A stretch of 64,000 bases of DNA, from NCBI GenBank assembly GCA_965208835.1, contig OZ242358.1, forward strand, positions 2,944,001 to 3,008,000. Reading direction: 5' to 3'. The notes under the pieces are model-generated. The model did not search any database and had not been told where the DNA came from. It was given only the letters and a program-made list of their open reading frames with translations. The DNA is from Candidatus Latescibacterota bacterium. Its GTDB lineage: Bacteria; Latescibacterota; UBA2968; GCA-2709665. Position 1 is the first letter of the stretch. Every line of letters begins with the position of its first letter. Positions 2,787 to 7,058 of this stretch are shown piece after piece. The position numbers were made by a program, and so were the translations under genes.

Positions 2787-3752
2787 ATGAACGGCAAAAA
2801 GAAGATTTACCTTGATTTCGAACGTCCCATTGAGGAACTGGACAAGAAGATCGAAGATCTCAAGGACCGCGCCGAGTCTGACAATGCGGACGTGACGGCT
2901 GAACTGTCCTCCCTGGAGAAACGGTTGCAAAAGGCGGAGAAGGACATTTACTCGGCTATGAGCCGGTGGCAGATATACCAGTTGGCGGGGCACCCCCAGC
3001 GTCCTCATACGATCGACTATATTCGATTAATTTTCTCCGACTTCATGGAACTTCACGGAGACCGGAACTATCGGGACGATCCGGCGGTGGTTAGCGGCTT
3101 CGCCCGCCTCGACGGACAGCCACTCCTGGTCGTCGGTACACAGAAGGGGCGCAATACGACGGAGAATATTCATCGTAACTTCGGCATGGCGCACCCTGAA
3201 GGGTATCGAAAGGCCCTTCGTGTGATGAAACTCGCCGCCAAATTCAAACGCCCTGTCCTCTGTCTCATCGATACACCCGGAGCCTATCCGGGCATCGGAT
3301 CTGAGGAGCGGAGCGTCTCCGAAGCGATCGCCAGGAATCTTTTCGAGATCTCGCGTCTTCCGGTCCCTGTCATTGTGGTCATAATCGGAGAAGGCGCGAG
3401 CGGCGGTGCGCTCGGCATCGGTGTAGGAGACCGAATCCTGATGCTGGAAAACGCGTGGTACTCCGTGATCAACCCCCAGTCCTGCTCTCTCATACTCTGG
3501 CGGAACCGCGACAAAAAGGAAGAGGCCGCGGAGGCACTGAAGATTACCGCCCAGGACCTCGTCCCTCTGGGGATCGTCGATCGGATCGTACCGGAGCCCT
3601 TTGGCGGCGCACACAGGGATCCGGAAACGGCCAGTCGAAACCTGAAGCGAATCTTACTGGACGAACTTGGGAATTTATCGCGCAAACGGCCGGAAGAGCT
3701 GGTCCGCGAGCGGGTCGAAAAATTCGGTCGCATGGGTGTCTGGGACGAGTGA
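2787..3752 (+). CDS. accA: Acetyl-CoA carboxylase carboxyltransferase alpha subunit
   Basis: [52 protein letters not shown]. Confidence 0.97.
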
Positions 3753-3808
3753 CCCGCGGGCGTCATAATGGCGACCGATCTGCATTAGCGGAACACATCG
3801 AAATAAGC

Positions 3809-3840
3809 AAAAAATGGGCCACAAGTTGCCCGTTTTCTTT
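3809..3840 (+). terminator. Intrinsic terminator after accA
   Basis: AAAATGGGC...GCCCGTTTT hairpin followed by a T-rich tract. Confidence 0.6.
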
Positions 3841-4055
3841 CGTCATGACAGCCCTCGGCCACAGGATTTCACTAACATGCTGTTTACGTGGGAGGTTCCG
3901 TAATCCGACCGAATCTAGGGATTTTTTTTGGTAAAAAAGGGGCCAGGGAGACCGACGGAGCCCAAAAAAAAAAATCTCAACGTGCAGCCAATTGAGTTTC
4001 AGTATCTTATGCGAAAGTTGCCGGTTACGCACCGTCTTTTTTCTCAAATTAGCCC

Positions 4056-4084
4056 TTGACGACTCTACAATCCCCATATATATT
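4056..4084 (+). promoter_or_regulatory. sigma70-type promoter with no downstream + strand protein gene
   Basis: TTGACG-N17-TATATT; the same TATATT -10 occurs at 7261, 17162, 42916 and 50521. Confidence 0.65.
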
Positions 4085-4090
4085 TCAATC

Positions 4091-4572
4091 GTGCTTGCCA
4101 AGAGACCGTCTCCACATAAGATGTTGTCTTGGAGTAAGTTACATCGTCGGATCCGTGTGCGTTTCCCATTGGTTGTCCTTGGCAAAAACACCCGGATTCG
4201 AGTAAGGAACCGGGGGATGGCCGCGGTTCGTTTTGACACTAGCCAGGAACCCGTTCCACACCGGTTCGTTTGGTCGGAGTTTTGAAACTTCGGCACTTCG
4301 CCATCCTGTCAGAAATTGAATGAATGGGCGGTATGGCCGTTACCGGGATTCGCTTCAGCAAGTGATCCAGCCCGGGAGAAGTAAAAGCATCGGCTCTTTG
4401 GTTGGCGGCAGTCTTATTGGGGGAGATAATACTGCCGGCTAGACCTAACATATAGAACTGCTGCTTTTCTTCTTATGCATCGTGGCTCTTTGCTGATTCC
4501 GTATTCCTGTGCGGCTATCCGCCCATTTTAGTTTGATCTGTATTCCCGTCCCGTTCGACCCCGGCCATTCCC
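4091..4572 (+). ncRNA. Candidate large structured non-coding RNA (~480 nt), family unassigned
   Basis: Lies downstream of the promoter between convergent genes. Many stems (4095-4102/4178-4185; 4215-4221/4300-4306; 4273-4281/4286-4294) plus a ~230-nt rod at 4310-4540. G-U pairs favour the + strand. No credible ORF. Confidence 0.6.
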
Positions 4573-4691
4573 GCTTGCGGCCGGTTTCGCGCGTTAAACG
4601 TCTGTATCGCGGTCCTGTCCTCCTCACCTCCCTGCGTCCGGATCCACCTCGCCAGACGACCCCCGCACCGGTGGCGGTTCCGCTTGCTTCG

Positions 4692-7058
4692 TCACGGCGT
4701 TTCAAGCCATCCCCTGGCGTCGATTCCCTGTTCATCGATCCGAATCTCTACAGCGCCCATCTCATCGGTCCGGTAGATAGAAATCCCCATTGTTTCGAAA
4801 CGCCTGATCACCTCGCCGGACGGATGGCGGAATTTATTCCGGACACCGCAAGAGATCACCGCGAGATTGGGACGTACCGCGCCCAGAAAAGCAGCCGTGG
4901 ACGAGGTTCGGGATCCGTGGTGCGCCGCCTTCAATACCTGTGCGCGGAGCCTGTCCCCCCACCGCAGGAGATCCGGATCCGTTTCATGCTCAATGTCCCC
5001 CGTCAGCAGAACGGCCGTCCCTCCAAACGCGAGTCGGATCACCACTGAGCCGTTGTTCAGGCCCAGCGGTGCAGGCCCATTCCGCGAAACGTAATCCGGC
5101 GTTGGATGCAGCACCAGGGCATCCACCTCACCCAGTCCTCCGAACCGGTCACCCGCCTCAATCGCCGTATAACGTATGCCCTTCTCGCGGATCAGCGTTC
5201 GGATCCGGCGAGCGGTCCATGAATCGTAGAACTGCCCTGCGTCGAGGTACCAGCCAACCTCGACCCTCTCCAGGAGTGTCACGAATCCGCCAATATGATC
5301 GCTGTGCGGGTGAGTCGCGACCACGGCGTCGATCCGATTGATTCCCTCAGCCTGAAGGAACGGGATCAGTACCCGTTCACCCATGTCGACGTTCAGCCCG
5401 CGCAACCCGCTGTCTACCAGCAGCGTCTTCCCGTTCGGGAACCTCAGAAAAATTCCATCGCCCTGGCCCACGTCCAGTACCAGCATGCGCAGGTCCGCTG
5501 GACGCTGCCAGATTCCCGACCAGACCCAGAGATTCACAAGTGACAGGCCCACAAGTACCAACCGGCGACCCCATCGACCGGACCTCGCTTCGGGCAGAAT
5601 CAAAGCCGCGGCACAGAGATACAGCCCAATGACGGTCCAACCGGGTCTATCTAGTTCGACGGCAGCCCATGACGGCGCTGCAAACCAGCCCGCGGCCTCG
5701 ATGGCGCCCTTCAGGACGACCCAGTTCGCGCCGTTCAGTAACGACGCCACGGGCGAAAAGACGTGAAAGACAATAGCGCCAAGCAACCCCAGCGCGACGG
5801 CGGCCGCCATCAGGGGTACCACAACCAAGTTGGCAAGGATCGATACGATCGAAAGAAGCCCGAAATACGTCAGCACAAAAGGAAGTGTGGCCACCTGTGC
5901 GGCCACCGACACCGCAAGCGGCGTCCATATCCACCGGGCGAGGCCGCCTGCGGGGCCGCCCGGCAGGCAGGCGCGGATCGGCCGATGGAGAATCAGAATT
6001 CCCCCGGTTGCGGCAAATGAGAGTTGAAAGCCGACGTCGAACAGGTCCAGGGGCCTGAAAATCAGGATGACGAGAGCGGCCAGGCCGAGTGCATTGAGTC
6101 CCTCGCCCTGTCTGTTTCCCAGGCGACCCCAGATGGTAAGCGCGCACATCATGGCGGCTCTGACAACCGACGGCGGCAGCCCGGTAACCAGCGCGTAAAG
6201 CAGCACGGCGCAGACGGTAGTCCAGGCGGTCGCCTTCCTGCCGCATCCCACTGCACCGAGGGCGAAGAACACTACCGCGGCAATCAGGCCCACGTGTAAT
6301 CCCGAAACGGCCAGTACGTGGTTGACTCCGGCTCGGGTAAACGCGGTACGCACGGGGTCGGGAACCCCGCGTTTTTCGCCAAGCAAGATACCGCTCAGCA
6401 GCCCCGCCGGTCCCCCTGAGAGGTTGTGCGCCACGGCGCCGCGTACGCCCCGGCGCACGGGCAGTACCACGTACGTCCACAGCCAGCCTCCCCGTCCCGC
6501 GCGGATCTCCAGGACCTGTTCCCTTCTCGACACGGTGCCCATGGCGTGGACTCCCTTTCGTTCCAGGAATGCGCGGTAATCGAACGCGCCCGGATTCCTC
6601 GCCGGATTCGGCCTGCGCAGGTGCAGACGCGACGACAAACGGTCTCCGTAGTCCACGTCCGGACGGAACCTTCGGAACCGCAGGAGAACCATTCCCTGAA
6701 TCGAATACACCGTATCGCCCACCGCGACCCGCTCGGCGGCCACACGAAGACGCAACCCGTCTTCCATCCATTCAGGATCATCGGCCACGCGCCCGTCAAG
6801 TACGACGGGACGGTCTCGTCCGGTAAACCCCGCTACATGGTCTTCGGGTAACGTCGGCATAACGCTTTCATACCGCATTGCTCCAAGCACAAGCAGCAGG
6901 ACTCCCGGCCACGCGGAACGGCTCTTCAAGCGGATCAGGCACACGATCCAGAGTGCGAAGCCTCCGGGCCATAGCGCCCATGTGGGCACGTCCACGCGAT
7001 GGGCGATGAGCACTCCCGCGGAAAAAAACACCGCGGACAGCAACGCCGGACGCCGCAT
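4692..7058 (-). CDS. comEC: DNA internalization competence protein ComEC/Rec2
   Basis: OB-like region with RNPGAFDY, competence domain HVLAVSGLHV and GFQLSF, metallo-beta-lactamase domain DVGQGD / THPHSDHIGG / HHGSRTS. Confidence 0.96.
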   Translation of the reverse strand: MRRPALLSAVFFSAGVLIAHRVDVPTWALWPGGFALWIVCLIRLKSRSAWPGVLLLVLGAMRYESVMPTLPEDHVAGFTGRDRPVVLDGRVADDPEWMEDGLRLRVAAERVAVGDTVYSIQGMVLLRFRRFRPDVDYGDRLSSRLHLRRPNPARNPGAFDYRAFLERKGVHAMGTVSRREQVLEIRAGRGGWLWTYVVLPVRRGVRGAVAHNLSGGPAGLLSGILLGEKRGVPDPVRTAFTRAGVNHVLAVSGLHVGLIAAVVFFALGAVGCGRKATAWTTVCAVLLYALVTGLPPSVVRAAMMCALTIWGRLGNRQGEGLNALGLAALVILIFRPLDLFDVGFQLSFAATGGILILHRPIRACLPGGPAGGLARWIWTPLAVSVAAQVATLPFVLTYFGLLSIVSILANLVVVPLMAAAVALGLLGAIVFHVFSPVASLLNGANWVVLKGAIEAAGWFAAPSWAAVELDRPGWTVIGLYLCAAALILPEARSGRWGRRLVLVGLSLVNLWVWSGIWQRPADLRMLVLDVGQGDGIFLRFPNGKTLLVDSGLRGLNVDMGERVLIPFLQAEGINRIDAVVATHPHSDHIGGFVTLLERVEVGWYLDAGQFYDSWTARRIRTLIREKGIRYTAIEAGDRFGGLGEVDALVLHPTPDYVSRNGPAPLGLNNGSVVIRLAFGGTAVLLTGDIEHETDPDLLRWGDRLRAQVLKAAHHGSRTSSTAAFLGAVRPNLAVISCGVRNKFRHPSGEVIRRFETMGISIYRTDEMGAVEIRIDEQGIDARGWLETP

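Follow-up and report, generated by a model that had tools for sequence, protein, structure and literature searches.

What occupies the spacer between the convergent genes accA and comEC in Candidatus Latescibacterota? We analysed a stretch of 64,000 nucleotides (hereafter the window; G000:C1:2944001-3008000) from a single-contig genome of 5.18 Mb that is 97.8% complete. A sequence-only reading of the window had placed an undescribed, multi-domain structured RNA of ~480 nt in a gap of about 940 bp between the 3′ ends of the two genes. It had proposed to test this by folding against shuffled sequence, covariation among homologs, a scan of Rfam, metatranscriptome mapping and a count of genomic copies. 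The gap is as described and measures 939 bp: accA (2787-3752, + strand) matches the AccA carboxyltransferase alpha subunit with 474 bits and comEC (4692-7058, − strand) matches ComEC/Rec2 with 307 bits. The G+C content of the spacer is 51.9%, compared to 58.7% for the whole window. We found that this spacer is non-coding and that it holds a strongly structured RNA gene of a new, previously undescribed family. Only a rod of ~205 nt at its 3′ side is common to the order, and the helices that had been drawn further 5′ are not conserved.

The RNA folds into a long rod on the + strand

The structure that carries this finding is the following.

4323-4527, + strand: conserved core, a rod of ~205 nt (one long imperfect hairpin) closed by AAUGGGCGG/CCGCCCAUU

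We compared the predicted folding of this region with that of shuffled sequences. Positions 4085-4572 gave a z-score of −4.15 on the + strand and −2.57 on the − strand. The rod alone folds at −91.2 kcal/mol on the + strand (z = −5.52, with none of 200 shuffles as good) and at −71.0 kcal/mol on the − strand (z = −3.95). Many of its pairs are G-U on the + strand, as the sequence-only reading had noticed, and these pairs together with the energy gap between the strands led us to assign the RNA to the + strand. All of the rod helices listed in that reading have their segments in place and make up the minimum-free-energy structure. Its picture of a densely paired transcript applies to the rod but not to the 5′ half, which gave z = −1.89 when folded alone, with 8 of 200 shuffles folding as well.

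We scored covariation for the rod on a model-fitted alignment of 30 distinct sequences, using as controls the same partners slid by one to three columns and 500 shuffles. In this alignment, 88.0% of cells form standard pairs, compared to 38.8-50.4% in the slid controls, and double changes occur in 56 of the 68 pairs, compared to 23-29. The covariation score was 0.514 against 0.085-0.130 for the slid controls, and none of the 500 shuffles reached any of the observed values. When we aligned 39 sequences independently with MAFFT, the closing stem and the apical hairpin emerged again, each of their pairs with 11-25 double changes. Both the covariation and the folding comparison that had been proposed as tests therefore come out in favour of a structured RNA.

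The rod is single-copy and confined to one order

A DNA search of 41 relatives recovered the spacer in 16, including the window's own genome. It is kept in all 14 other species of the genus with 72-91% identity over ~740 nt, and a second genus gave a match of 110 nt only. Conservation within the genus spans 3793 to ~4535. Column identity peaks at 0.92-0.99 between 4363 and 4482, with up to 99% at 4393-4422, and this peak exceeds the level at the end of accA. The element gave one match in the 5.18-Mb genome, so the many dispersed copies that would have marked it as a miniature inverted-repeat transposable element (MITE) are not there.

Next to the DNA searches, we used covariance models on a phylum sample of 151 genomes; families and other genera are referred to below by numbered labels (f1, f2 and so on; g2, g3 and so on). 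The first model, R1, was built from 16 rod sequences, and the second, R2, from 30 matches in eight genera. R1 gave full-length matches in 41 of the 151 genomes (18/18 of f1, 22/30 of f2 and 0/102 of 12 other families), with one forward match per genome; genomes G003 and G008 also gave a weak match on the opposite strand at the same site. R2 gave one match in each of the 18 genomes of f1 and the 30 of f2, and again none in the 102 genomes of the 12 other families. All 49 sampled genomes of the order carry one copy of the rod. Downstream of accA in family f3, neither comEC nor GGGGGAGA nor such a promoter as described below lies within 1.1 kb at any of 28 loci; a diverged f3 homologue was looked for at that position and not found. 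As far as it can be detected, the family is confined to one order of Candidatus Latescibacterota.

The gene order is kept as well. Both accA and comEC flank the RNA, pointing towards it, in 18 of 21 loci across the order; two of the remaining three have comEC only and one has accA only, and the locus or contig ends there. A pattern scan of genome contigs returned 21 loci, 16 of them with the rod. By title these 16 comprise 12 Latescibacterota, three Gemmatimonadota bins and one uncultured bacterium. The other five are chance matches.

A conserved promoter precedes the rod

Upstream of the rod we observed three elements on the same strand.

4056-4084, + strand: sigma-70-type promoter TTGACG-N17-TATATT, with the −35 hexamer at 4056-4061 and the −10 hexamer at 4079-4084, agreeing with the consensus at 10/12 positions
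4038-4055, + strand: UP-element-like A/T-rich stretch TTTTTCTCAAATTAGCC, directly before the −35 hexamer; cross-genus form TTTnTCTCAAATAA
3985-4015, + strand: upstream promoter element GAGTTTCAGTATCTTATG (in other genera AGTTTCAAGAnnTTA), ~60 nt before the −35 hexamer

The promoter is the one that had been read from the sequence alone. In its extended form, ATATATATT, it is unique in the genome, and transcription is predicted to start near 4091. Across 15 species of the genus the two hexamers are invariant and the spacer between them is variable. Across eight genera, all of the 17 loci compared have CTTGAC[G/T] ... ATATATATTC ahead of the rod. Its distance from the rod differs widely: −264 in the window, −422 in g4, −554 and −604 in g2, about −375 in g3, −381 in g11, −346 in g10, −367 in g8 and only −93 to −98 in g6.

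The A/T-rich stretch may work as an UP element, judging by its composition and position. The element further upstream is a conserved block in the genus and has the same spacing in g3, g4, g6, g10 and g11; the window version of the AGTTTCAAGAnnTTA-type motif (3996-4009) is unique in the genome. This motif and the UP-like element are kept across two families. We regard the upstream element as a candidate site for a DNA-bending or activator protein, and its motif loosely resembles the consensus of an IHF site.

Two further observations concern promoters in this genome at large. The pattern TTGAC-N16-20-TATATT occurs 99 times, which makes TTGACA/TATATT apparently the common promoter form of the organism. 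Seven near-identical promoter-like strings, TTGACCGC..GTATATT, lie ~276-1090 bp apart on the − strand of G000:C1:622504-625786; this arrangement suggests a tandemly repeated sequence, probably within a repeat-rich gene.

RNA-library contigs of a relative lie on the spacer, which does not encode a protein

Sponge metatranscriptomes (four runs of one study, selected because they hold this stretch) contain five contigs of a close relative, 161-365 nt long and 90-98% identical to the window. They cover 4099-4425, 4116-4236, 4166-4503, 4203-4564 and 4335-4531, and two of them span both leader and rod. Within the cover of this one study, no contig lies on 3500-4098 or 4565-4900. The contigs fit a transcript that starts near 4091 and includes the leader and the rod together. 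The sequence-only reading had expected metatranscriptome mapping to reveal a + strand RNA with this start; the contigs, found only at 4099-4564, agree with the place of the RNA but cannot show its strand or ends.

Two possible 3′ ends follow the rod.

4526-4532, + strand: U-run UUUUAGU after the closing stem (CCGCCC followed by 4-7 T in the genus)
4561-4589, + strand: alternative 3′ end, a weaker hairpin with UUU

The U-run, with its U residues at 4526-4529, is the probable 3′ end of the RNA, with the rod itself acting as the terminator hairpin. One of the relative's contigs reaches 4564, however, and the end may instead be near 4589. Inspection by eye showed a separate hairpin with a U-run after the rod in 14 of 17 loci; in the window and in two g3 loci, the 3′ strand of the rod runs directly into the U-run.

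The spacer had been described as having no credible open reading frame (ORF). ORFs of 177 aa (− strand) and 97 aa (+ strand) do exist, but none is conserved or resembles coding sequence. The 14 other species in the genus keep neither frame nor strand, and the variable columns are spread over the three codon positions at 0.63/0.62/0.62 in the spacer, compared to 0.81/0.21/0.13 in accA. We rejected a protein-coding reading of the frames 3763-4296 (−), 3992-4285 (+) and 4445-4735 (−), which show no Pfam match, conserved frame or 3-base periodicity. Some g6 sequences have an open frame after the apical loop; by eye, 1-nt indels interrupt it in other g6 sequences, and it was likewise set aside.

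The RNA matches no family in Rfam

We scanned the window with all 4227 families of Rfam 15. At the gathering threshold there was no match anywhere in the 64 kb. At E-values up to 10, the region 3700-4750 returned SraG alone (E = 8.8), a chance match on the accA terminator, and six loci of other genera gave terminator-type noise only. OLE, GOLLD, ROOL, raiA and the other families that had been named for this comparison, as well as HEARO, thus do not match the spacer. The sequence-only reading had excluded RNase P RNA, tmRNA and the signal recognition particle (SRP) RNA by their missing motifs, and all three do sit elsewhere in the genome: RNase P RNA (RF00010) with 298.1 bits, tmRNA (RF00023) with 208.6 bits, and SRP RNA with 176 bits for the large and 69.7 bits for the small model (RF00169/RF01854). 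That reading's suggestion of a new non-coding RNA is borne out by an element that is conserved, covaries, follows a conserved promoter, occurs in RNA libraries and has no Rfam match.

Several known RNAs share features with the rod. SRP RNA likewise forms a long hairpin in which internal loops and the apical loop are conserved, and the closing stem of the rod could be the place where its 5′ end is freed from a leader. The genome, however, has a bona fide large SRP RNA elsewhere, and no SRP match was found in the spacer at E-values up to 10. The strand GGUCCGGGAGGAAG locally resembles the SRP helix-8 sequence; an SRP-like local hairpin there was rejected, since by covariation the partner of this strand is the rod's 3′ strand. 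The large SRP RNA itself lies at G000:C1:3029608-3029875, ~21 kb past the end of the window, where it adjoins a cluster of tRNA-like matches (3029608-3031180).

CsrB/RsmZ RNAs and Y RNAs resemble the rod as stable RNAs with G-rich (GGA-containing) loops and a conserved closing stem. In the rod, however, G-rich motifs number just two or three, and a tRNA-like module is missing. Neither CsrA (PF02599) nor Ro60/TROVE (PF05731) was found in the 97.8%-complete genome. We therefore dropped both the CsrA sponge, for which many GGA loops would also be expected, and the Y RNA/Ro60 ribonucleoprotein, whose protein is usually encoded close by, as readings of the element.

The 5′ leader has some structure at the level of the genus

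The part of the transcript that precedes the rod behaves differently.

4091-4322, + strand: genus-specific 5′ leader of ~232 nt, with conserved hairpins at 4094-4138 and 4198-4236 (loop GGGGGAU)

Here the sequence-only reading had drawn two domains, each closed by a helix, with an inner hairpin. The complementary segments are present, but neither conservation nor covariation supports these helices. Among 15 genus members, 66.6% of their cells are paired overall, with helices 1, 3 and 4 at 59.6-65.8%, and they show seven double-change pairs, a number that one of the slid controls equals. A structure derived with RNAalifold fares better, with 92.9% of cells paired compared to 37-47% when slid and ten double-change pairs, figures that come from the same sequences from which the structure was derived. 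It includes a possible long-range helix, 4157-4161/4292-4296. Since pairing is high in this structure and weak in the helices drawn earlier, the leader has some genus-level structure, which is not the drawn one and is not common to the order. The ~480-nt multi-domain RNA of the sequence-only reading is thereby reduced to the ~205-nt rod as far as the order is concerned.

From promoter to rod, the leader ranges from ~60 to ~570 nt across genera. Leaders align only between close genera, and convincingly only between g2 and g4. A recurrent motif, GGGAGGGAA..GGGGAU, was considered as a sign of cross-genus homology and rejected as too unreliable to align.

G-runs of the GGGGGA type occur three times in the transcript, at 4210-4216 in a leader hairpin loop, at 4371-4381 on the 5′ strand of the rod and at 4419-4425 in the apical loop. 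The long leaders of g2, g3, g4 and g11 contain comparable G-rich motifs, and the short g6 leader does not.

The rod displays an invariant loop and a self-complementary bulge

Two unpaired elements of the rod are conserved.

4419-4425, + strand: apical loop GGGGGAG; the run GGGGGAGAUA is invariant in 39/39 sequences from eight genera
4474-4481, + strand: self-complementary octamer UAUGCAUC in a 3′-side bulge or internal loop, in the window a 6-nt palindrome, AUGCAU

The stem below the apical loop covaries, with 19-25 double changes in the neighbouring pairs, and the loop itself resembles a Shine-Dalgarno sequence.

The octamer varies in sequence and remains largely self-complementary. It reads [U/A/C]AUGCAUC in the window's genus, GAUGCAUC in g8, g10 and g11, GAUGCAUU in g2 and g4, GAUGCGUC in g3, and GGUGCACC, GGUGCACU, AGUGCACU or GGUGCAUC in g6. 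Counting G-U pairs, it is fully self-complementary over 8 nt in 23 of the 39 sequences. On average 3.54 of the four mirrored pairs can form at the octamer, compared to 0.03-2.23 when the register is moved to ten neighbouring offsets, none of which gives full self-complementarity in any sequence. The rod therefore carries a conserved, self-complementary, single-stranded element of the kind expected in a homo-oligomeric RNA, and it is specific to this register. The changes take routes that are usual for RNA helices, through wobble states: positions 2/7 go from A-U over G-U to G-C, positions 1/8 from G-C over G-U to A-U, and two of the three central variants are wobbles. Most of the 8-nt forms have a predicted self-duplex energy of −7.3 to −14.5 kcal/mol, and the 6-nt form of the window's genus about −6 kcal/mol. 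The octamer is predicted to be mostly unpaired, a statement for which we used the overall trend alone, since the prediction hit the wrong site in a few rows (the apical loop of g4/g2 and two g6 octamers). Because it can fold on itself with at most two pairs, the simplest reading of the octamer is pairing between two molecules.

OLE, ROOL and GOLLD form natural RNA homo-oligomers, according to the accounts in PMC12286853 and PMC12990946. The RNA described here resembles them in being lineage-restricted and highly structured, and its self-complementary element suggests symmetric RNA-RNA contacts. It differs in that the rod is much smaller and simple and has no Rfam match, and its oligomerisation is predicted from sequence alone.

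A trans-acting, dimerising RNA is the preferred explanation

We propose the following scheme for the gene. The sigma-70-type promoter at 4056-4084, with the UP-like element and the upstream site, would drive a + strand transcript from ~4091 to ~4530. Its first ~230 nt would be a lineage-specific leader and the rod at 4323-4527 the functional core, a nearly continuous helix that displays the G-rich apical loop and the 8-10-nt bulge of the 3′ strand. By pairing through the self-complementary bulge, two rods might form a symmetric dimer, with the G-rich loops as possible contacts for a cellular partner, either a protein or a C/U-rich RNA. The RNA would act in trans from its free-standing gene.

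That the RNA acts in trans, dimerises via its bulge, contacts a partner via its G-rich loop and stands outside the 6S family is the explanation we prefer, tentatively and at somewhat less than an even chance. The precise assembly, a housekeeping-type RNA that works as a symmetric homodimer in which two ~200-nt rods are joined by the 8-nt self-complementary bulge and each shows the invariant Shine-Dalgarno-like loop, is possible but rather doubtful.

Several points weigh against the preferred explanation. A divergent 6S RNA would look just like this: a universal, single-copy rod of ~200 nt in a genome where 6S RNA goes undetected. In the window's genus the palindrome has just 6 nt (AUGCAU), with positions 1/8 mismatched in 14 of 14 species, and one species carries UUCGCAUC at the octamer. 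The octamer changes amount to few events among related sequences, and they are also compatible with a mini-hairpin of two pairs, a symmetric protein site on the RNA or a palindromic site in the DNA. The alignment scored for covariation was fitted to the model structure and hence leans towards it by construction, and the contigs come from a relative in a single study, cannot show strand, ends or level, and derive from RNA libraries, which can hold DNA.

The rod resembles 6S RNA in shape but not in its central bubble

The strongest of the alternatives is that the rod is the order's functional 6S RNA, a decoy for the sigma-A holoenzyme trimmed from a longer precursor and too diverged for the Rfam model. 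We judge this unlikely, although the sequence-only reading had offered a divergent 6S-like rod carried in a precursor as one of its two options, and the shape, the single copy and the lack of a detectable 6S RNA agree with it.

PMC8876501 describes 6S RNAs as rods of ~200 nt whose central bubble is relatively unstructured and carries a ‘−10-like’ element on its 3′ strand, with a ‘−35-like’ region in the apical arm. The rod, too, is ~200 nt long, closed by its own two ends, single-copy and universal in the order; with its closing stem formed by the ends and its apical stem-loop, its 68 model pairs give the general outline of a 6S rod of ~180-200 nt. It is made from a strong sigma-70-type promoter, possibly as a longer precursor, and is probably abundant; contigs holding only the RNA were recovered. 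Its main irregularity lies ~40-55 nt from its 5′ end, near the middle of the rod, and the most conserved strand of the internal loop is the 3′ strand, the one in which the ‘−10-like’ element is placed in the account of 6S RNA in PMC8876501. The same account describes small 3′-bubble hairpins for Bacillus 6S-1.

The lack of a detectable 6S RNA also fits this alternative. In the window's genome, RNase P RNA, tmRNA and SRP RNA were all found elsewhere and 6S RNA was not (E up to 1), and 6S matches were likewise obtained in 0/18, 0/30 and 0/64 genomes of f1, f2 and f3. The Rfam 6S search was positive in just 4-5 of 14 control genomes, however, so that this absence is weak evidence.

What sets the rod apart is the missing large, two-sided central bubble that defines 6S RNA. 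In clade-wise consensus folds, its central loop leaves 0-7 nt unpaired in the 5′ strand and 8-10 nt in the 3′ strand, whereas the Rfam 6S consensus line has a central bubble of 16 x 13 unpaired nucleotides and a second loop of 12 x 13. On the 5′ side, six nucleotides are unpaired in the window, three in g2/g4, seven in g6, five in g11 and none in g8, where the rod measures 176-181 nt. Some pairs inside this central region covary (60:196 and 64:192). At the gathering threshold, the 6S family, RF00013, did not match the window; it was also missing from the matches listed for the window and for the six loci of other genera when E-values up to 10 were admitted. The rod differs further by its invariant apical loop and self-complementary bulge, and an invariant apical loop is not known as a feature of 6S RNAs. 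The shape thus fits and the defining bubble is absent, for which reason we did not file the rod as 6S RNA.

Sub-threshold 6S candidates do occur in the small-genome families f9 and f12 (L078-L083), the best with 43.2 bits against a cut-off of 46.4. These weak matches look canonical. They have no sequence in common with the rod and do not lie near accA or comEC, and we rejected orthology between them and the rod on these grounds.

Neighbouring features and the remaining alternatives

A scaffold without dimerisation is a second alternative, in which the rod would be a base-pairing or titrating regulator that works mainly through its Shine-Dalgarno-like apical loop. The loop would pair with C/U-rich targets such as the anti-Shine-Dalgarno tail of 16S rRNA or C-rich sites in small RNAs or mRNAs. 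The invariance of GGGGGAGAUA and its covarying stem suit this role. By hand, we could pair the loop with the 16S 3′ end of the window's genome (...CACCUCCUUUCU) over seven contiguous pairs, four Watson-Crick and three G-U, and further GGGGGA-type motifs lie on the rod's 5′ strand and in the leader hairpin loop of 4198-4236. These extra motifs, however, are paired in the rod and absent from the short g6 leader, and the genome yielded no match to CsrA, which is known to bind GGA loops. Such a regulator would also leave the conserved self-complementary bulge unexplained, and we consider it improbable.

A third alternative concerns the immediate neighbours of the gene, among them one more element of the spacer.

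3806-3842, + strand: hairpin preceded by an A-run and followed by a T-run (AGCAAAAAATGGGCC...GCCC-TTTT), an invariant block in 15 genus members

This hairpin is located ~55 nt past the stop codon of accA and 250 nt before the RNA promoter. Its first 18 bases are unique in the genome and are found identically downstream of accA in g4; the block also occurs in g3. It is probably the accA terminator, working in both directions, and does not belong to the RNA gene proper. Despite the look of a bidirectional terminator, conservation is far higher in the 5′ half of the hairpin than in the 3′ half. Between this hairpin and the RNA promoter, a motif at 3873-3892, CACTAACATGCTGTTTACGTG (ACTAACCTGTTGT in g3, g4 and g11), is conserved as well.

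In principle, the RNA itself could be a cis element, either an elaborate terminator or insulator between accA and comEC or an antisense regulator of the comEC 3′ end. It keeps its place between the two genes throughout the order, the rod in the window's genus has no separate terminator behind it, and one RNA contig runs on to 4564. The RNA is nevertheless preceded by a strongly conserved promoter of its own that includes upstream elements, accA is already followed by a terminator-like hairpin, and the separate hairpin and U-run seen by eye in 14/17 loci stand between rod and comEC. Together with a conservation (99% in parts) far above the needs of a terminator, this makes a cis element very improbable.

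That there is no RNA gene at all, and that a MITE, a DNA palindrome or protein site, or a small protein gene explains the element, is scarcely tenable and already largely refuted: the inverted repeats do score on the − strand as well (z = −3.95 and the reverse matches of R1) and ATGCAT and GTGCAC are palindromes in DNA, but each of 49 genomes has one copy, the energy asymmetry and the G-U pairs favour the + strand, the element shows no codon periodicity, conserved frame or Pfam match and contains frame-shifting indels, and the contigs from RNA libraries are restricted to the predicted transcript.

Implications

No member of the Latescibacterota is known to be in culture, no non-coding RNA is known to have been described from them, and a full-text literature search returned no paper linking the phylum to 6S RNA or structured RNAs. 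The RNA described here occurs once per sampled genome of its order, follows a strong and elaborately conserved promoter and exceeds the essential gene next to it in conservation, so that a central role is likely. The covariance model of the rod is ready to be used for annotating these genomes and metatranscriptomes. Should the rod be the missing 6S RNA, it would show how far the 6S family can drift, with the bubble that resembles an open promoter nearly closed. If it is not 6S RNA, it would be a new class of abundant bacterial RNA. In that case the self-complementary bulge offers a simple, experimentally testable hypothesis of how RNAs dimerise in nature, a field recently opened by the cryo-electron microscopy of OLE, ROOL and GOLLD. 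If the homodimer is true, two rods would make up a small quaternary assembly of natural RNA, and its role in the cell would differ from those of all described classes of bacterial RNA.

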